The position numbers were made by a program, and so were the translations under genes. DNA of 64,000 bases from Desulfurococcales archaeon (GTDB lineage: Archaea > Thermoproteota > Thermoprotei_A > Sulfolobales > Desulfurococcaceae). Below are positions 3,471-42,063 of this stretch, piece after piece. The DNA lies in contig JALVYU010000007.1 in NCBI GenBank assembly GCA_027022365.1, forward strand, positions 32,001 to 96,000, in the 5' to 3' direction. The first letter of the stretch is position 1, and every line of letters starts with the position of its first letter. A model generated the notes under the pieces. That model saw nothing but the letters and a program-made list of their open reading frames with translations. It was not told the origin of the DNA and ran no database searches.

Positions 3471-4746
3471 TGAAGTATCCCTCTATCGAGCGCATCGAGT
3501 CATAGGTCAGGGGGACACCGTTATCTTCTAGTAGTCTTATAAAGTAGTTTGTAATCCCCCTAGATACATCTTTGGCTAGTTTATCGGCGATAAGGATTGA
3601 TAGAGGTATAACGGTTCCTGACAATAGTGAATCTATTAATGGCGGGGTACATGGATGGTCGTATGTTTTAAGAATAAATGAGAGATCATGCTCGAGAAAC
3701 TCTACTCTGTAGAAGCCGTAGGGCGCCACACCTGTATTAATAGCGTATCTATGTCTAGGGAGTCCAATATAGTATACGATCTTAGGGGGTATGTCTGCTA
3801 GTTCTTGCGGAGCCCCTATCTTGATGGGCCCTATTATGAACGGCTTAGCAGAGACGTTCTTAAATACTGAGCGAGTATACAGTATAAGGTAAGCCTGATC
3901 ATTTATTTTTGCTCCACCCGTCAGGCCCGCTGGATCAACACATGATAAAATATATGAGTTTTCAAGCCGTTTCACAATTCCATAAACGAGTGTATTTTTC
4001 TTCTTATGTCTAAGTATCTCGAGTCTTTCCTTGATCAGTGCTTTCCAGCTAGCAATATAATCGTCAACCCTCCCTCTGCTTGGTGGTTTCAGTGAAGAAT
4101 ACATACTTGCCAGTTTAGGCACTATGTAGATAGGCCCGTCGAGGAAAACAACGCTGCCGGATCCGCTACTTGTATTCATCAGAATCATAGAAAGTACATG
4201 GTTCTCAATGACTAGTCTAAGTTCATCTAGAGCAACATATCGATTATATGTTTCGTCGTATGGCGTTCCTGCAGGATTATGAGTCATTACGCATGGGTTC
4301 TTAAGGATTATATCATCGGGGCCGGAAAAGGGGATTATAACCATCCATTTACAATCCTGGCACAGCACGGGATCTTTTCCTATTATCCCCATAATTGACG
4401 GGCACTCGACTTTATCTCCATACCTATAGTTTACACCGACACCAAACCCCATTCCCATGAAAAAGAACGGAGATGTTATAGTTCGTGTACTACTGTCCAC
4501 ACCATAAATAGGTATGAAAGTATTATGTTTGCGGAGATCATCTACATCGATTATTTCAATTATATTGTCATCCAAAACCTGTATCTTATTATCATCAACG
4601 TACTCGATCCTCGCCTCAAATAGAGGTTGGGCTGTTTCTGATTCATCAACAAAGCGTGTCATTCGATTATTTCTTTTTACTAGACCTATTAGATCCTTTG
4701 CTATCCCGCTAAATATTCCGGTATCCATGGGTATCCCTAAAATCAC
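3463..4746 (-). CDS. NurA-family nuclease
   Basis: GVDSS, FLDGP and GIVKR motifs typical of NurA; overlaps the herA-like gene. Confidence 0.75.
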   Translation of the reverse strand: MILGIPMDTGIFSGIAKDLIGLVKRNNRMTRFVDESETAQPLFEARIEYVDDNKIQVLDDNIIEIIDVDDLRKHNTFIPIYGVDSSTRTITSPFFFMGMGFGVGVNYRYGDKVECPSIMGIIGKDPVLCQDCKWMVIIPFSGPDDIILKNPCVMTHNPAGTPYDETYNRYVALDELRLVIENHVLSMILMNTSSGSGSVVFLDGPIYIVPKLASMYSSLKPPSRGRVDDYIASWKALIKERLEILRHKKKNTLVYGIVKRLENSYILSCVDPAGLTGGAKINDQAYLILYTRSVFKNVSAKPFIIGPIKIGAPQELADIPPKIVYYIGLPRHRYAINTGVAPYGFYRVEFLEHDLSFILKTYDHPCTPPLIDSLLSGTVIPLSILIADKLAKDVSRGITNYFIRLLEDNGVPLTYDSMRSIEGYFIG

Positions 4747-31781: not shown

Positions 31782-33053
31782 CTACTTTTTATATCGCCTA
31801 TAGTATTGCAATACCTCCCTGGCACTCGGTCCTGCAAGCCATTTAATCATTTCCTCAGTTAATCCATAGCCTATGGCTAATCTCGCAGCGTACTTAGGGT
31901 TTCTCTCGAATATTATCTTGATGAACGGTATAACATCGGTCTTGACTCTGTGCCTACTTGTCAATAATGCTGGGGCCAGTGCACGGGCTATTCCTTCTCT
32001 GATCTCTCTGCTTCGCTTGGTCTGTGCAAGCAACTGTAGTCTCTGTGGTGATCTAAACGCTTTCCAGCGGTACCTATATATCTTTCTTGCAAAGGCTACG
32101 CCTGGCCCCATCATTTCGAACACGTATGACAATAAACTCCAGGCGCCTGTTTTCTTTATTCTTCCGAGATATACATCTGCTCTACTTAGAGCTTCATAAG
32201 CTCTCCATATTTCTTCCGGATCATCATAGTATGTCGGTATGTGTTCGTTGATCCAGATCATCATGGTCTCATAATCTATGTCCGCCTGTGACACAGCATT
32301 TTTGGCTTGGAATATGTACTTCGCGTTAAAAAGATTCTTCAATGCCTCGAATGGCGCGTACTGTCTATTTCTGTATGTTGAAAGCATTCTTACAAGTTCG
32401 AGCGTTACCCTACCATAACCCTCGGCTATGGCTTGGAGATCATTAATAGCACTCCTCAAATCTCCCTCGCTGCGCTTAGCGATCTCTCTCAGTGCTTTTT
32501 CATCGCATTCAATTTTCTCTGAGGAGCAAATCTTTTTTAATGCGATGACAACATCTCGTTCACTAAGTCTCTTAAAAGGAATCATGAGCGAGACTTCACG
32601 AAGAGGTCTGAGCTTCTGATCCCATGGATTATTCGCGGTCATCACTACCGGATAGCGTGTCGTTTCAATTAGGTGCAGAATAGCATCTACAGCACCCCTA
32701 TCAGCCATACCGCTTATACCATCCACTTCGTCAAGCAATATTATCTTTCCACGAGCAAATAGACTTCTCTGAGTAGCGGCTATTTTCGCGATCCTTTCAA
32801 TATCTTGTTTTCTCCTGAAGTCACTAGCATTCATCTCAACTACTTCGAGCCCATTTTCCCTCGCAGCAGCTTCGACAAGGCTGGTTTTCCCGCATCCTGC
32901 CGGCCCATAGAGTAAGGCTGCCTTCTTAGAGGGTTTGCCCCTAAGCCATGATTCTAGCCATTGGAGGAAGGTCTTCTTAGCCTGGTCCTGATTTATGACG
33001 TCAGCTACTTTCTTTGGCCGGTATTTGATTATCCAGGGAAGTCTCTTGGTCAA
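31782..33053 (-). CDS. rfcL: Replication factor C large subunit
   Basis: [37 protein letters not shown]. Confidence 0.95.
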
Positions 33054-34739: not shown

Positions 34740-37700
34740 GTGCTTATTCCTATGAGTTTTGATACGGAGATGTTTACGCAGGAAGTAGATGATCTTGTAA
34801 CCCGGTTTAAGAGATTTCTATGGGAATACATGGATCGCAAAACACGTAGCTTCAAATACCGTGAACGCTTATCGCAGATGGCGTTGATGAGCCAGAAGAG
34901 CCTCATCATAGATTTCGATGATATAACTCTTTTCGATAGGCGGCTCGCCCATATAATTGAGGATAATCCCGAGATAGCTCTTGATGCTGCTAGCCGGGCG
35001 ATCAAAGAGTTACTGCTTAAGGAAAACCCTGACTATGCCCAAGCTGTCGAGAAATTCTACCCCAGATTCAGGAATTTGTCACGTATAATAAGGGTAAGAG
35101 AACTCACAAGCGAGTATATCGGTAAAATGGTCGCTATCGAAGGAATATTAACTAGGCTCACAAGGGTCGAGGCAAAACTCGTCAAGGCAAGATATAAGCA
35201 CCTCGACCCAGAGTGCGGGGCCGAATTCGATTACCCCGAATACGGAGAAATGGGGGAACGGATAGAAAAGCCAGCGATATGCCCTATCTGTGGGAAAGGC
35301 GGAAAGTTCCAGTTACTACCAGACAAGTCAAAGTTCATTGATTGGCAGAAGATAGTAGTGCAGGAAAAACCCGAGGAGGTTCCACCCGGCCAAATACCAA
35401 GAAGCATAGAAGTTGTACTAACTGGCGACCTCGTCGATATCGCGAGGCCCGGAGACAGGATAACGATAACGGGGATCCTAAGAGTTATGCCTACAGCATC
35501 TATACAGAAAGCAGGCAGTAAGGCGGTCTTTTCCTTCTACATTGAGGCAAACTACGTGGATGTTCAGCAGAAAATACTCGAGGAAATAGAAATCACCCGT
35601 GAAGACGAGGAGAAAATCAGGGAAATGGCTCGGGATCCATGGATAAGAGAGAAGATAATTGCTAGTATAGCGCCATCAATATACGGTCATTGGAACATAA
35701 AAGAAGCCATAGCCCTCCAACTATTCGGCGGAGTACCCAAAATCCTCCCAGATGGGACTAGGATTCGTGGAGATATACATGTCCTATTAGTCGGGGATCC
35801 AGGTACTGCTAAATCACAGATGCTACAATACGCTGCAAGGCTTGCACCAAGAGGAATATACACTAGTGGAAAAGGCTCATCAGCCGCGGGCCTAACCGCT
35901 AGCGTACTACGTGATAAACACACTGGTGAGTGGTACCTTGAAGCAGGTGCCCTAGTCCTGGCCGATGGAGGCATCGCCGCTATAGATGAGATCGATAAGA
36001 TGAGAGAAGAAGACCGTAGCGCGATCCATGAAGCACTTGAACAACAAAGCTATCATCCAGACTTTGAGATCATGTTGGCCGATGGACGGCTCGTCAAAAT
36101 AGGGGAGTACGTTGATTTGCTCATGGAGAAAAACCCTGACAAGATATTACATGGCGGGGAAACCGATGTTCTTTTCGTGGACGACGTGTTTCTCGTAGGA
36201 TACGATCTCTATACTTATACACCGCTAATTGTAAGGGCGGACAGGATTAGTAGGCATGTCGCACCGAGAAAATTTGTAAAATTAAGGTTCAGCAATGGAC
36301 GCGAAATAGTAGTTACACCTGAACATCCTGTAATTGTGTTCTTAGATGGACGCATCACTGTATTACCTGCAGAGAAAATAGAGCCCAGCATGATTGTCCT
36401 TGGAGTCAAAAGATATCCCGTTCTTGCAGGAAATACTATACGTGTCAAAAGACTTATAGAGAAATACGGATTAGAGAGTGCATCCCTGCTAATTTTCAAG
36501 GTTTTGCTGGGTGAACTTACCCCGGAGGATATTGGAGAGCTAAAGGATCTTGGTATACTAAATGAAGATAATTTGATCAAGAACGAATTCTTGAATGAAT
36601 TGGTAACATCTGAGGAATTAATCCGTAGAATTATTACAATGCTCTTTACTCGAAAGGCGAATATTAGTGACTGTCTTGTCTCATTACAAGTAGATCATGT
36701 TTCGGCCCTATTAGTTCAGGAAATCTTGTGGAGACTGGGAATAAACAGTTTCATAGCCGATAGAGAACTAATTATATCGGGACCGAGAAGCCTCGAGAAA
36801 CTAGCACAATATATCATTGACGAGGAAACACGCTCACAGATACTAGGATCAAGCAAAACGTTAAAGGGCTATCCTGATTCATGGCTAGAAATAGTATACG
36901 CAGTTGCCGGCGGGCTAAAAGAACTTATAGGTCATGATCTGTTCAAGAGAATTATTGTAGGCGACATTTCTGAAACAATGCTGGAAACCATGATATCTGG
37001 CATACTTAATGATCTTGCCAAGACAATGGGAGATCTGAGGAGCCATTGTGTCCTAAAAGAAAACTATATGCTTCTTTTAACACTAACCGCTGGCCAGGAT
37101 ATCAGAAAGTTCTTCACAAAAATAAGTGATTCTCTCAACAAACTTAAAGAAGTACTGCTAGATATCGAGGAGAGGCTCGGAGAATCCAGTATACCACGGA
37201 TAGTGGTCGGTAAGGAAATAGTGGAGAATAAGGGCGTCAAGTGGGTATATGACATAACTATTGAGCCATACCACTTATTTGTCTCTCACGGCCTTGTCTT
37301 GCATAACACGATCAGTATTGCAAAGGCAGGAATAGTTGCTAGGTTGAATGCGCGGGCCTCCGTCCTTGCGGCCGGTAACCCCAAGTTTGGAAGATATGAT
37401 CCAAAGCAGTCTATAGGTCAAAACATTGATCTACCACCACCGATTCTCTCAAGATTCGATCTTATATTTATAATACAGGATATACCACATGAAAAGCGGG
37501 ACAGGATGCTGGCACGCCACATATTATCTGTCCACGGCAACGTGGAGAAAGCTAAGCCGGTGATAGAGCCTCAATTATTGAAGAAGTATATCAGCTATGC
37601 GAGAAGATATGTTAGGCCTCAGCTAACCCAAGAGGCTGTACATCTCCTCGAGGAATTCTTTGTATCGATGAGACGTGCTAGCGGTGTTTCAGAAGAAGCA

Positions 37701-38105
37701 CCAATAGCTATCACCGCGAGACAGTTAGAAGCACTTGTAAGGCTGAGCGAGGCTCATGCAAAAATGGCGCTAAAAAACAAGGTAACAATAGAGGATGCTG
37801 AAGAAGCTGTAAGACTCATGTACTATAGTCTACAAAGAGCAGGCATAGATGTAGAGACAGGCAGGATAGACATAGACACAATCATGGTTGGGACACCCCG
37901 CAGTAAGCAGGAACGTATGAAAGCCTTCATCCGATTCATTGACGAGATATTCGAAGAAACAGACGAGATCGAATACAAGGAGCTCGTGAGAAAAGCAATT
38001 GATAAAGGATTCGCAAGAGACTTCACAAACGAAATGCTGAGAAAACTCAAACGAGAAGGCACCATATATGAGCCGAAGCCCGGAGTGATCGCAAAGATAA
38101 AATGA
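34740..38105 (+). CDS. mcm: MCM replicative helicase containing an intein
   Basis: DWQK..VQE, GDPGTAKS, IDEIDKM, LSRFD, TARQLE. Confidence 0.97.
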   Translation: MLIPMSFDTEMFTQEVDDLVTRFKRFLWEYMDRKTRSFKYRERLSQMALMSQKSLIIDFDDITLFDRRLAHIIEDNPEIALDAASRAIKELLLKENPDYAQAVEKFYPRFRNLSRIIRVRELTSEYIGKMVAIEGILTRLTRVEAKLVKARYKHLDPECGAEFDYPEYGEMGERIEKPAICPICGKGGKFQLLPDKSKFIDWQKIVVQEKPEEVPPGQIPRSIEVVLTGDLVDIARPGDRITITGILRVMPTASIQKAGSKAVFSFYIEANYVDVQQKILEEIEITREDEEKIREMARDPWIREKIIASIAPSIYGHWNIKEAIALQLFGGVPKILPDGTRIRGDIHVLLVGDPGTAKSQMLQYAARLAPRGIYTSGKGSSAAGLTASVLRDKHTGEWYLEAGALVLADGGIAAIDEIDKMREEDRSAIHEALEQQSYHPDFEIMLADGRLVKIGEYVDLLMEKNPDKILHGGETDVLFVDDVFLVGYDLYTYTPLIVRADRISRHVAPRKFVKLRFSNGREIVVTPEHPVIVFLDGRITVLPAEKIEPSMIVLGVKRYPVLAGNTIRVKRLIEKYGLESASLLIFKVLLGELTPEDIGELKDLGILNEDNLIKNEFLNELVTSEELIRRIITMLFTRKANISDCLVSLQVDHVSALLVQEILWRLGINSFIADRELIISGPRSLEKLAQYIIDEETRSQILGSSKTLKGYPDSWLEIVYAVAGGLKELIGHDLFKRIIVGDISETMLETMISGILNDLAKTMGDLRSHCVLKENYMLLLTLTAGQDIRKFFTKISDSLNKLKEVLLDIEERLGESSIPRIVVGKEIVENKGVKWVYDITIEPYHLFVSHGLVLHNTISIAKAGIVARLNARASVLAAGNPKFGRYDPKQSIGQNIDLPPPILSRFDLIFIIQDIPHEKRDRMLARHILSVHGNVEKAKPVIEPQLLKKYISYARRYVRPQLTQEAVHLLEEFFVSMRRASGVSEEAPIAITARQLEALVRLSEAHAKMALKNKVTIEDAEEAVRLMYYSLQRAGIDVETGRIDIDTIMVGTPRSKQERMKAFIRFIDEIFEETDEIEYKELVRKAIDKGFARDFTNEMLRKLKREGTIYEPKPGVIAKIK
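36048..37307 (+). mobile_element. 420-aa intein in MCM with a degenerate homing endonuclease
   Basis: EQQ|SYHPDFEI...VTPEHP (block B)...WVYDITI..HLFVSHGLVLHN|TISIAKAG. Confidence 0.93.
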
Positions 38106-38126
38106 CTCTTTTTAACTCTATTAGCC

Positions 38127-38182
38127 TCGGTGGGGCGAAAGATTTTTCCTCACGAATCAGGGCTGGAACGCCTCTTCATCGG
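38127..38182 (-). ncRNA. Box C/D sRNA (two probable 16S rRNA targets)
   Basis: CCGATGA - GCGTTCCAGCC - CTGA - GTGAGGA - CTTTCGCCCC - CCGA; complements recalled crenarchaeal 16S GGCUGGAACGC and GGGGCGAAAG. Confidence 0.85.
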
Positions 38183-38261
38183 CCACATAAGATTAAAAAT
38201 CCCCCTACTCATAAACCTTACCAGAACTGTGGAGGTAATAAAATAAGGAGATGATACAGGA

Positions 38262-38666: not shown

Positions 38667-39059
38667 TTATTCGCAGAACTCCTTTCCGTGGACTATCAGA
38701 TCCAATAGCTGCTTGACCCACTTGGGTCCGACAAACTTGTAGTACCTGAACTTCCCCGCCACTCTAACCTGCGCCAGACCACGCTCTCTCAGCAATGATA
38801 GGTGGTGGGATATCAAGCTCTGCTCCTTGCCAGTGATCTTCGTCAACATACATACTGGTAGTTCTTGCTGACTTATCAATGCTAGGATCTTTAGCCTTAA
38901 CGGATTTGCTAGAACCACGATAATATCAAGATACTTCTTTAGTTCCTCATCGCTCGGTATCTTGATCTCCTGGTCAAGCTTGTCCTGATAGAACTTCTCA
39001 AGCTCATCAAAACACTTCATGTCCTTTACGAGCTCCAATAGTTCTTTGATTTTTACCAT
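38667..39059 (-). CDS. ArsR/SmtB-family regulator
   Basis: LANPLRLKIL, VC, QSLISHHLSLL. Confidence 0.9.
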   Translation of the reverse strand: MVKIKELLELVKDMKCFDELEKFYQDKLDQEIKIPSDEELKKYLDIIVVLANPLRLKILALISQQELPVCMLTKITGKEQSLISHHLSLLRERGLAQVRVAGKFRYYKFVGPKWVKQLLDLIVHGKEFCE

Positions 39060-39250: not shown

Positions 39251-39363
39251 TGGTGGGGCCGCCGGGATTTGAACCCGGGATCACCGGCGTTCTGTGACAC
39301 CAGGCTTGGCTAGGCGGGGTGTCCCCCCAGGCCGGCATCCTAGCCAAGCTAGACTACGGCCCC
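39251..39363 (-). tRNA. tRNA-Pro(GGG) with a 35-nt intron at 37/38 (39290-39324), CCA encoded
   Basis: GGGGCCG...CCGGC CT GGG G [intron] C GCCGG...CGGCCCC A CCA; BHB-like junction with GACACC/GGTGTC helix. Confidence 0.92.
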
Positions 39364-39930: not shown

Positions 39931-40708
39931 TAAGCCATAGATATACAGGCGTAGGGGAATATTTATACTTCCGCAACTTAACAATAACGTTTTCCCTATC
40001 TATCCCTAATAGTCTCCGGATGTATTCGCTATATTTTGAACGTATAAACAGATATGATGCTACCATTGTCAGATTATGTGGTAGCTTCCTAATTCTAGCG
40101 CTTTCCCAGTCCAGATAAACTGGTAAGTTATTTTGTGCCACAATGATGTGTCCGTACGGTCTGTTCAGCTCGGTATGATCTATTCCGAGAAGGTCGAAAA
40201 GATATGAAGCACTTAGTATTTTTGTCAGTATTTTGAACAAGTGCTTGGTATTATTTGTAGTTATGGTGTGTTCAATGAATTTTTCCAGACTAACCCCTCT
40301 AACGTACTCCATTCCTATGAAATCCTTTGACCAAAAATAAAGTATAGGTGTGTAGCCGGTTGATGATAGGTAATCTAACATAATCCCTTCATACTCGAGG
40401 CTTCTCCTCCTACTGTCAAGACGCCTTATCTTGAGAGCTACAGGTTGCCTCATATGTTCCAGACATGCTAGGACAACTATTGACGAATAACCTTTTCCGA
40501 TAATCCTCATGTTTTTCTCAATGAGTATCTCGCCATGGTTGAGAAAACCTATAACACCATGTTTTTGTATCTTGTTTATTCGCTTTACAAGTACTTCGCA
40601 TCTCTCCTCAGGATAACATAGTATTTTCTCGACATACGTGTCTGAGGGATCTACTCTATGCAATAATCCATCCAATAAGGTCTTTTCCTCACAAACGATT
40701 CTAGCCAA
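39896..40708 (-). CDS. Archaeal Ser/Thr protein kinase
   Basis: IGKGYSSIV, ALKIRR, MEYV, IDHTEL, LDWE. Confidence 0.8.
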   Translation of the reverse strand: MARIVCEEKTLLDGLLHRVDPSDTYVEKILCYPEERCEVLVKRINKIQKHGVIGFLNHGEILIEKNMRIIGKGYSSIVVLACLEHMRQPVALKIRRLDSRRRSLEYEGIMLDYLSSTGYTPILYFWSKDFIGMEYVRGVSLEKFIEHTITTNNTKHLFKILTKILSASYLFDLLGIDHTELNRPYGHIIVAQNNLPVYLDWESARIRKLPHNLTMVASYLFIRSKYSEYIRRLLGIDRENVIVKLRKYKYSPTPVYLWLIKLFQQVYREL

Positions 40709-42063
40709 TATAGTGCATCCTCCCTTAGCTCGTCAATATACTCGTCCAAAAGCTCTACTCGTGGCTGTAATCCTTTGAAATGAGGCGTAACAATATACTC
40801 CTTAGCACGTTCTACAAGTAGCTTTTTCGCATCCGAATATCTCCGCGTGGATAGGGACATTAGCTCACCCTTATCATTAATCCATGGACCAAAACTGTTT
40901 CTAGTAACATGGGATCTGATAAAGCTATGCACTCGTTTCAAACTATATGGTGATGGCCCATAGTATAATCTCGGGTATGGTTTAGAGCACTCGTCTATTT
41001 CAACAGCTATGATGGCCAGTTCTTTTTCGTCAGTCCACACATCTTGGTCGAACGGCATGAAGTCGAAGTTCTTCAGTACTTTTGACGCTCTATCAGCTAT
41101 TCTCTGAAGCTCCCCCCACAGAACATCCGGAGGCAGCTGTTCTTTAACTGGGAGAATAATAAGAATAATACATCTCCTTCTTATCTGTTCACGTAATAAA
41201 TCCTTATCAACTCCTCCCTTATCTGGCGGAAAGAAGTATTCAATCCTTGGATTCATAAGGTAGCAGTAACTAGCAATTTTCATAGTAATAACACTCTTCA
41301 GCGAAACAGCAGCGGCAACGTTCCGCCTTAGATCAACGGGATCAGGTACATACATTGGGCAGCCAGGATATCTTTTAACAAGCATAGAAAAAACATCATC
41401 GAATTCGTTGTGTCCCGATACATTTATCTTAACGGGAAGTTTCCAGTGCCTGGCCCCCCTCAATAGGTCTCTGAAGCCATCATAGGCTATTATGAGAAGC
41501 TCGCATAAGTAGCCAGAGAAGCCCCTTGTTTTTATCTCTGCACCGTATATTCCTAAGCTCTTCAAGAACTTCTTTAATAGTCTGACATGATCTTTCAGTT
41601 CATCTCTAAGGTGATCTCTAACATATTTTGTATGAAACGGCGTCCTATCAACTGCTGTCCTTATTTCTGAGGGATCATCTAGTTTGAAGGCTGGAACGAG
41701 ATCTACTTCAACACCATCAATTATAACCCTAACATAAGGGTGTTCCGCATATCTTATCGTGTATTTGTCGAGTTTCTCCGCGGCTTCAAGCAGTATTTTG
41801 AAGCCCTTTCCTTTGAGTTCATCAACACTCCAAGTCTTTGGGAAGAGAACGAAAACATCCATATCTCTTTCTCCGCTTAGCCAGGTATCATGCGCAATGC
41901 TCCCCTGCAGCGTGATCTCGGCTTCAACGCCGTATTTGTCAAGAATGGAAGAGATTGTTCTCCTAACTTTATCGAAAACTCTCCTCATCAAATCGTATTC
42001 GGACTTCTTAGGCTTAATCTGTTCTAAAACTCTTCTTTCGATACTTATTAGTGGCTCAGTCAA
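40651..42063 (-). CDS. cca: CCA-adding enzyme (class I)
   Basis: QGSIAHDTWL...DMDVF, YAEHPY, AVDRTPFH, GFSGYLCEL. Confidence 0.95.
   Translation of the reverse strand: MTEPLISIERRVLEQIKPKKSEYDLMRRVFDKVRRTISSILDKYGVEAEITLQGSIAHDTWLSGERDMDVFVLFPKTWSVDELKGKGFKILLEAAEKLDKYTIRYAEHPYVRVIIDGVEVDLVPAFKLDDPSEIRTAVDRTPFHTKYVRDHLRDELKDHVRLLKKFLKSLGIYGAEIKTRGFSGYLCELLIIAYDGFRDLLRGARHWKLPVKINVSGHNEFDDVFSMLVKRYPGCPMYVPDPVDLRRNVAAAVSLKSVITMKIASYCYLMNPRIEYFFPPDKGGVDKDLLREQIRRRCIILIILPVKEQLPPDVLWGELQRIADRASKVLKNFDFMPFDQDVWTDEKELAIIAVEIDECSKPYPRLYYGPSPYSLKRVHSFIRSHVTRNSFGPWINDKGELMSLSTRRYSDAKKLLVERAKEYIVTPHFKGLQPRVELLDEYIDELREDALYWLESFVRKRPYWMDYCIE

Follow-up and report, generated by a model that had tools for sequence, protein, structure and literature searches.

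A conserved intron loop complementary to the D-arm of its own tRNA-Pro(GGG) in Desulfurococcaceae

The tRNA-Pro(GGG) gene of a Desulfurococcales archaeon (family Desulfurococcaceae; assembly GCA_027022365.1) is located on the reverse strand at positions 39251 to 39363 of the window analysed, i.e., the 64,000-nt stretch between positions 32,001 and 96,000 of contig JALVYU010000007.1, and it carries an intron whose terminal loop is an exact antisense of the D-arm of the same tRNA. Within the Desulfurococcaceae the loop is retained in a number of genera, and the few changes that occurred in it keep the pairing. A loop kept in this way, with matching changes in its partner, suggests that the intron does a job in the unspliced RNA. 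A pairing in cis, within the precursor, is the reading tentatively favoured below.

The intron loop and its complement in the D-arm

The 113-nt precursor core, whose cloverleaf pairs were checked one by one, is composed of a 5′ exon with tRNA nucleotides 1–37 (39325–39363; anticodon G34 G35 G36 at 39328–39326), a 35-nt intron at the canonical 37/38 position between G37 and C38 (39290–39324), and a 3′ exon with nucleotides 38–76 (39251–39289), the CCA being encoded; all positions in this section refer to the reverse strand. Joining of the exons by removal of 39324–39290 gave a five-base-pair anticodon stem (CCGGC/GCCGG) closing the loop CUGGGGC. The acceptor stem (7 bp) and the T-arm were found, and the D-stem is weak, with the pairs G10–U25, U11–A24, C12–G23 and U13–G22.

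Positions 39314–39304 of the intron (CCUAGCCAAGC), located in the terminal loop of its hairpin, are exactly complementary in antiparallel orientation to positions 39349–39339 in the D-arm (GCUUGGCUAGG, tRNA G15–G23, including G18 and G19). The perfect 11-nt antisense of the original prediction was thereby confirmed as 11 Watson–Crick pairs, which cannot be extended on either side; the two complementary arms are 24 nt apart. The chance expectation, roughly estimated in that prediction at below 1e-3, held in mononucleotide shuffles, a Watson–Crick run of at least 11 being reached in 5 of 200,000 when the loop was compared with the D region (2.5e-5), and in 79 of 100,000 shuffles when the whole intron was compared with both exons (about 8e-4). 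Of 21 tRNA genes with introns that were examined in the genome, tRNA-Pro(GGG) had the longest run, 11, the next best being 6. In the 1.74-Mb assembly the 11-mer target was found only in the D-arm of tRNA-Pro(GGG), in the identical D-arm of tRNA-Pro(UGG) and as the antisense in the intron. The tRNA-Pro(UGG) gene of this genome (contig C26, 584826–584901) is intronless.

The other introns of the genome gave nothing notable in 18 of the 21 genes examined (z above −2). A tRNA-Gln-like gene, labelled ‘Stop tta’ by ARAGORN, reached z −3.38 from a 4-nt Watson–Crick run in GC-rich sequence. The intron of tRNA-Asn(GUU) contains GCCUGGC, which matches the D-loop GCCAGGU over 7 bp (z −3.65), and was considered as a second case. 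It was rejected as a false positive, since among 22 distinct family sequences GCCUGG was unchanged with either CCAGG or CCUGG in the D-loop, the word being a strand of the splice motif. Complementarity alone is thus insufficient; the tRNA-Pro motif, unlike the tRNA-Asn word, lies in the loop rather than in the splice motif and follows the D-arm. In the tRNA-Asn(GUU) intron (contig C26, 460695–460796, and the family loci) a T-loop-like word, GGGUUCGA, is present in many Desulfurococcaceae, followed by the D-arm-like AGCCUGGCAGAG, which is the splice-motif strand.

In the tRNA-Pro(GGG) precursor, the intron contributes CAG (39292–39294) to the central helix of the splice motif, where it pairs with C32 U33 G34 (39330–39328). 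The fourth position is G35–A, so that the central helix consists here of three Watson–Crick pairs, as compared with the four of CUGG/CCGG in most relatives. The 5′ bulge is G36 G37 and the first intron G, and the 3′ bulge A A C38. A motif with a three-pair central helix is of the relaxed type accepted by crenarchaeal enzymes, as described in the part of PMC3241643 drawn on here. The outer intron helix (h′) is formed by GACACC (39318–39323) and GGUGUC (39296–39301), and with its 16-nt loop it is the minimum-energy fold of the isolated intron, in agreement with the original prediction (−11 kcal/mol, z −1.66, an unremarkable energy). This stem was supported by the variants GAUACC/GGUGUC, GAUAC/GUUGUC and GAUAC/GUUAUC in relatives, in which the helix is kept by compensatory change, U–G pairs included. 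Judged by its sequence, the intron appears to be an ordinary member of the archaeal class spliced by the endonuclease at a bulge–helix–bulge motif.

A further element, CCCCG (39315–39319), is the complement of U33–G37 (39329–39325), lies immediately 5′ of the anti-D-arm motif (39304–39314) and is conserved throughout the order. As CCCC(G/A), 5–7 nt into the intron, it was observed in nearly all tRNA-Pro(GGG) orthologues, including those with 16-nt introns almost devoid of an outer helix. By its complementarity to the anticodon and G37 it offers the anticodon a second partner beside the central helix of the splice motif.

Occurrence and matching changes among relatives

A DNA search over 201 genomes of the order returned a match in every genome, and the best match of 150 was fetched; each of these was a tRNA-Pro(GGG) gene interrupted at 37/38. 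For the Desulfurococcaceae (63 genomes), 37 further loci yielded 31 more tRNA-Pro(GGG) genes, the remaining six being one gene cut by a contig end, three other tRNAs and two tRNA-Pro(UGG). The final set comprised 181 sequences (158 distinct combinations) from 75 genera, 20 of them Desulfurococcaceae, and the intron was at 37/38 in all 181 parsed orthologues. From other orders of the phylum 40 loci were sampled, of which 25 were scorable tRNA-Pro(GGG) genes and five more were of GGG type and unparsed. Genera and families are designated below by g and f numbers, respectively, the Desulfurococcaceae being f1. Named records sharing the exon–intron junction belonged to the Desulfurococcaceae, as metagenome-assembled genomes and genomes of Thermogladius and Staphylothermus.

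Two structural peculiarities were observed among the loci of relatives. In one g76 and one g9 relative, tRNA-Pro(UGG) is interrupted 5′ of the anticodon, at a non-canonical position, by an intron of about 33 nt; CUAG words are frequent in this intron and give short matches to the D-arm. Five tRNA-Pro(GGG) loci of family f3 have, besides a short intron at 37/38, another insert of about 20 nt, which lies between anticodon stem and T-arm.

A run of at least 10 bp between D-arm and intron, Watson–Crick and G–U pairs being counted, was present in 9 of the 20 Desulfurococcaceae genera; in 300 shuffles of the introns the number averaged 0.4 and never exceeded 3. Runs of at least 8 bp were found in 13 of the 20, whereas 200 shuffles averaged 3.0 genera and reached 8 at most. 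A duplex energy of z ≤ −2 against the D-arm was found in 9 of 66 genera of the order (f1 g1, g3, g4, g6, g8 and g9; f5 g74; f8 g37; f11 g48), and against the T-arm, used as a control, in 2 of 66. The pairing thus appears as a feature of the Desulfurococcaceae, with a patchy distribution within the family. In a single-gene tree of the neighbouring CCA-adding enzyme, a quick build having SH-like approximate likelihood ratio test (SH-aLRT) support only and many open forks, the motif-bearing genera were placed, with the exception of g84, in a single clade of 23 rows (support 95).

Beyond the family, enrichment was not supported for the set as a whole, and isolated cases were found: two f8 genera within the order and family f35 outside it. 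In f8 the pairing was present in g37 (4 of 4 genomes, with near-identical sequences) and g19 (1 of 2), and in none of the two g33 genomes. Family f35 was the only group standing out among the 25 scored (3 of 3 genomes from two genera, z −3.4 to −3.7); here the two genera share the loop word ACCAAGCUAGG, with covariation in the h′ stem, GUCUCC/GGAGGC in one genus corresponding to GUAUCCCC/GGGGCAC in the other.

Matching changes of the two partners were observed at several places. CUUGG in the D-arm is accompanied by CCAAG in the intron in g1, g82 and g9, and also in f11 g48, f8 g19 and f35; CCUGG is accompanied by CCAGG in g3, g8, g5 and g6, and by CCGGG, with one G–U pair, in g80 and g4. A D-loop lacking U20a (GGCAGG) is met by CUGCC in g84 (9 Watson–Crick pairs) and by CCUGCC in f8 g37, so that a one-base deletion is matched on both sides. 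A covariance model was built on the helix, and all 46 distinct Desulfurococcaceae sequences were aligned with it (an alignment by MAFFT had misaligned the motif and was excluded from the counts). In this alignment, which was fitted to the structure and is biased in its favour, 87.9% of the helix cells were paired, and the pair at nucleotide 17 was CG in 24 sequences, UA in 10, UG in 4 and unpaired or other in 2. The whole structure was 93.8% paired, as compared with 39–60% when the partners were slid by 1–3 columns, and the helix between CCCCG and U33–G37, the third of the alignment, was 89.8% paired.

In a swap test the D-arms were dealt randomly among the sequences and the summed pairing energy was compared with that of the real combinations. 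The real pairing was better with all distinct sequences (n = 134, p = 0.0003); with one sequence per genus p was 0.0098 (n = 66), with the Desulfurococcaceae genera 0.026 (n = 11) and with introns under 25 nt 0.48 (n = 26). The two partners thus appear to change together, yet the independent events are few. The orthologue comparison called for in the original prediction gave a divided answer, conserved and compensatory complementarity being found within the Desulfurococcaceae and lacking in most other families of the order.

The intron is conserved beyond the pairing itself. The introns of g1, g82, g80, g3 and g9 are 82–94% identical in all 10 pairs, and the 80-nt flanks of the tRNA gene in the same genera, where both flanks were complete, are 44–62% identical, shuffled 80-mers giving 55 ± 3. 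The CCA-adding enzymes of g9, g80, g3 and g82 have 51–58% protein identity to that of this genome. The gene order with cca next to tRNA-Pro is kept among relatives, which speaks for vertical descent. Since the splice motif requires structure only, and the intron is conserved next to flanks at the random level, the loop sequence itself is constrained, and purifying selection acts on the whole intron in the five genera.

Two predicted folds of the precursor and their interpretation

By nearest-neighbour folding, the minimum-energy structure of the precursor (folding z −3.23) contains the helix between D-arm and intron loop. At 37 °C the fold with the helix was predicted at −61.2 kcal/mol and the cloverleaf with the splice motif at −41.3 kcal/mol, the pair probability of the helix being 0.99; at 85 °C the values were −14.6 and −3.7 kcal/mol with a probability of 0.64, which fell to 0.33 at 95 °C. 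The predicted helix stacks on a hairpin formed by U33–G37 and the preceding CCCCG, and it consumes the anticodon stem and h′, whereby the splice motif is lost. In every lineage that has it, the anti-D-arm motif begins 0–3 nt after CCCC(G), so that the two helices would stack. Since only two nucleotides (CU) link the motif to the 3′ strand of h′, the full 11-bp helix and an intact h′ could not coexist, and a pseudoknot retaining both is sterically unlikely from pseudoknot geometry. The D-arm/loop helix on one side, and h′ with the anticodon stem on the other, thus appear mutually exclusive, and each has comparative support. At 37 °C, the minimum-energy fold contained at least six D-arm/intron pairs in 6 of 20 Desulfurococcaceae genera and in 4 of the 55 other genera; at 85 °C the numbers were 8 and 3, respectively.

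The reading favoured, with somewhat less than an even chance, is a pairing in cis in the precursor, before the intron is removed. It would compete with both the cloverleaf and the splice motif, hide G18 and G19, and act as a gate on folding or splicing. The anti-D-arm loop would pair with G15–G23 and the adjoining CCCCG with U33–G37, both together giving one long interrupted helix that would replace the D-arm, the anticodon stem and the bulge–helix–bulge motif. The precursor would thus have two mutually exclusive folds. In the finished tRNA, G18 and G19 dock on the T-loop; the antisense fold would prevent formation of the D-loop, and with it the elbow, and of the splice sites for as long as it is not undone by heat, proteins or the later-transcribed 3′ part. 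Splicing and elbow-dependent maturation would in this manner be delayed or ordered. We infer the formation of the helix in cells, its action in cis and its effect on splicing or modification.

Several observations weigh against this reading. The pairing should block the splice motif, and the benefit is not obvious. Tertiary contacts, modifications and proteins are outside the scope of nearest-neighbour models, and the cloverleaf was not recovered even with the motif unpaired. In the rest of the order the pairing is no commoner than chance, runs of at least 10 bp being present in 2 of 55 genera outside the Desulfurococcaceae (shuffled mean 0.66, with 2 or more reached in 42 of 300 shuffles), and the swap test gave p = 0.14 for these genera (n = 55). 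Within the family, seven of the 20 genera (g7, g10, g11, g12, g76, g83 and g85) and several members of g5 lack the pairing at the 8-bp threshold, and in g77 the complementarity is shifted to nucleotides 10–17a (CAGGCUAGAC, 10 pairs). The D-arm (CUAG-CYUGG-CUAG) is near-palindromic, which eases complementarity in shifted registers. On the tree of the CCA-adding enzyme the U17–A state occurs in g82 and in the pair of g9 and g1, which implies one or two events only. One g8 genome has CCAAGG opposite CCUGG in the D-arm, and thus an A–C mismatch. In species of the CCUGG type the anticodon region also reads GCCUGG and could likewise pair with the core CCAGGC; the CUAG flanks, together with the CUUGG/CCAAG state, argue for the D-arm rather than the anticodon region as partner.

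The same complementarity could act in trans, the excised 35-nt intron, linear or circular, binding the D-arm of mature or precursor tRNA-Pro(GGG) or tRNA-Pro(UGG) and serving as chaperone, decoy or regulator. The restriction of the 11-mer target to these two D-arms agrees with this, covariation and intron conservation fit it as well as they fit pairing in cis, and free tRNA introns of yeast that act through complementarity provide a precedent. In Sulfolobus solfataricus a tRNA-Pro intron has been observed in circular form, according to the part of PMC3326292 drawn on here, but the tRNA-Pro introns of the Sulfolobaceae (f13) lack the motif. The duplex energy of −19.9 kcal/mol at 37 °C and −6.0 kcal/mol at 85 °C corresponds to an estimated melting point of about 71 °C in trans at 1 μM of each strand, which is below the growth temperature of cultured relatives, about 80–92 °C. 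Moreover, a closed loop and a folded D-arm would restrict a loop–loop helix to about 6–7 bp unless one partner opens, and the constant placement of the motif beside CCCC(G) would be left without a role. We regard action in trans as unlikely. The position of the motif next to CCCCG, the melting point in trans and a predicted fold dominated by the helix are indirect arguments that favour cis over trans, which sequence alone cannot separate.

A guide, box-less or with very degenerate box C/D elements, that would bring a modification enzyme to the D-loop of the precursor (e.g., for ribose methylation of G18) is very improbable. It would be consistent with the CUGG that follows the motif in g1, g82, g80 and g3, one letter off box D′ (CUGA), with the fifth nucleotide upstream pairing with G18, and D-loop guide pairing is known in the order, a box C/D small RNA (sRNA) of Sulfolobus acidocaldarius being reported to target G18 of tRNA-Gln (PMC7668247, in the part used). 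On direct reading, however, the intron contains neither a box C (RUGAUGA) upstream of the guide nor a CUGA, and it gave no match to a C/D family of Rfam at E ≤ 1, in line with the absence of C/D boxes noted in the original prediction. An inserted base in g9 moves the fifth position to U17a, and nothing box-like follows the motif in g8, g4, g5, g6, g84, f8 and f35. A box C/D guide RNA as such was rejected, there being no boxes and the CUGG rule not being conserved.

A low probability is likewise assigned to the absence of any function at the RNA level, the motif being an inverted DNA copy of the D-arm that arose by template switching in replication, persists with occasional re-templating by quasi-palindrome correction and decays neutrally. 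The patchy distribution with frequent losses, the differing registers (nucleotides 15–25 in g1, 10–17a in g77 and 12–19 in f35), the perfect Watson–Crick arms in several lineages and the short distance between the arms would all be expected of such a repeat. Neutral sequence would diverge, however, whereas the whole intron, beyond the arms, is conserved in five genera with flanks at the random level. In addition, several helices are long only when G–U pairs, which are mismatches in DNA, are counted: from 7 to 13 bp in g4, 7 to 11 in g80, 6 to 10 in g6 and 8 to 13 in f8 g37. A comparison of G–U with A–C runs, intended to distinguish RNA-level from DNA-level constraint, gave A–C runs as long or longer overall (34 vs. 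22 genera), and the C/A-rich make-up of the motif alone favours G–U.

Finally, the loop may be conserved for another reason, such as a protein site or pairing with a different RNA, the match to the D-arm being a side effect of near-palindromic D-arm-like words; we consider this quite improbable. Such coincidences do occur, as the tRNA-Asn intron demonstrated, and the intron contains the sense-like D-arm word AGCCUGGU that had been pointed out in the original prediction. The tRNA-Pro motif, however, is in the loop and tracks the D-loop variants, in its CUAG flanks as well as in the one-base deletion, and the 11-mer is present at no further site of the genome. The intron also resembles D-arm words of other tRNAs (CGCCUAGCC, AGCCUGGU). 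Its birth as a sense copy of the 5′ tRNA sequence was rejected as an explanation, since the resemblance follows from the palindromic D-arm and the compensatory changes fit antisense and not sense pairing; as an origin it may stand. Thus, of the three readings proposed at the outset, namely a switch in cis, a box-less antisense or guide RNA in trans and a trace of intron birth, the first two were jointly supported by the orthologues against a mere relic.

Pairing in cis could be extended to a built-in maturation gate, a more speculative and rather unlikely proposal. The loop and CCCCG would clamp the D-loop (G18 and G19) and the anticodon, and the elbow and the splice motif would be blocked until the clamp opens. 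The predicted decrease in helix occupancy between 37 and 95 °C is what makes an RNA thermometer conceivable, which could tie the tRNA supply to temperature.

Genomic surroundings and relation to known systems

The tRNA-Pro(GGG) gene was missed by ARAGORN with default settings, and when introns were allowed it was found and mislabelled as tRNA-Ser(aga). Its best match in Rfam was tmRNA, with 31.2 bits as compared with a gathering score of 47; this sub-threshold match was rejected as an artefact of tRNA-likeness. By direct reading, the word TATAATAAT is located 14–22 nt upstream of the gene (39385–39377) and a T-rich run follows the CCA; they fit an archaeal promoter and terminator, respectively, which we take as their probable roles.

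On one side of the gene, on the reverse strand, are an ArsR-type regulator (38667–39059) and a candidate box C/D sRNA (38125–38183; Rfam sR47, 29.8 bits with a gathering score of 40, E 2.6e-4). In this sR47-like candidate the C, D′ and D words are recognisable, and its guides have no match to the tRNA-Pro D-arm. They are followed by an MCM helicase gene on the forward strand (34740–38105), coding for 1121 amino acid residues with an intein in the P-loop domain (Pfam Intein_splicing, residues 500–856). On the other side is the gene of the CCA-adding enzyme (40651–42063, reverse strand), which lies 1–2 kb from tRNA-Pro(GGG) here and in many relatives, including f35 outside the order. The tRNA-Pro(GGG) gene of this genome encodes its own CCA.

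Two other tRNA loci of the assembly were unusual. In a ‘tRNA-Arg’ call of ARAGORN (contig C26, 538287–538415) the last about 55 nt repeat the 3′ part of tRNA-Val(GAC) (contig C26, 534247–534324); this resembles the trace of an integrated element, in which the 3′ half of a tRNA has been duplicated at a distance of about 4 kb. The tRNA-Met at positions 4385–4457 of contig C1 has a sequence style unlike that of all other tRNAs of the assembly (lower G+C and a different D-loop), and this contig may be a contaminant in the metagenome-assembled genome.

The pairing of the tRNA-Pro intron with the D-arm resembles several known systems in part; the descriptions of them given here rest on portions of the papers cited. 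The archaeal pre-tRNA-Trp intron of Haloferax volcanii and others encodes a box C/D guide, and the excised intron is circular and stable (PMC3326292). It is likewise a protein-spliced archaeal intron at 37/38, antisense to positions of its own exons, and acts on the precursor. It differs, however, in having boxes C, D, C′ and D′, in working with L7Ae, Nop5 and fibrillarin and in its targets C34 and U39, the tRNA-Pro intron having no boxes, a D-arm target and 11 bp in a hairpin loop. The Sulfolobus guide for G18 of tRNA-Gln (PMC7668247) shares with it an antisense that pairs with the D-loop around G18 and the same order; that guide is a separate sRNA with boxes, whereas the tRNA-Pro antisense is box-less and lies inside the intron of its own target.

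The intron-dependent m1A58 modification of yeast tRNA-Tyr is comparable in that a conserved intron influences the distant elbow, where the T-loop and D-loop are in contact; it is eukaryotic, and the authors, in the part of their paper drawn on, propose an enzyme recognising the intron and no pairing of intron and D-arm (PMC12168002). With ordinary crenarchaeal tRNA introns, whose bulge–helix–bulge motifs are canonical or relaxed, the tRNA-Pro intron shares the 37/38 position, the outer helix h′, a central helix and the two 3-nt bulges, and the archaeal splicing endonuclease can act independently of the mature tRNA body (PMC3241643). Conservation of such introns is usually limited to structure, whereas the tRNA-Pro intron keeps its loop sequence across genera, matching an exon region outside the splice motif. 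In yeast, excised introns of tRNAs, named free introns of tRNAs (fitRNAs), reportedly act via base complementarity. They are eukaryotic and linear and have mRNA targets, as far as the portion of the source drawn on describes them, whereas the only genomic targets of the tRNA-Pro intron are tRNA-Pro D-arms.

No description of a pairing between intron and D-arm was found in the literature searched, the sources being covered in part, and intron catalogues in supplements or in further papers (e.g., Sugahara 2008, Marck and Grosjean 2003) may contain one. The new element, in an otherwise ordinary intron, is a conserved loop that is antisense to a part of the exon lying beyond the splice motif.

To our knowledge, the only well-understood archaeal case of a tRNA intron with a function is the box C/D guide of the tRNA-Trp intron, and according to the part of a 2014 review drawn on here there are no clear answers as to why tRNA introns persist in archaea and eukaryotes (PMC4090602). 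A loop kept across genera whose adjacent DNA has lost all similarity, and tracking its own D-arm, makes the purpose of an intron experimentally addressable, and cultured carriers of the motif exist in Staphylothermus and Thermogladius. If the pairing does gate folding or splicing, it would represent a novel way of controlling tRNA maturation in cis and a reason for the persistence of the intron.

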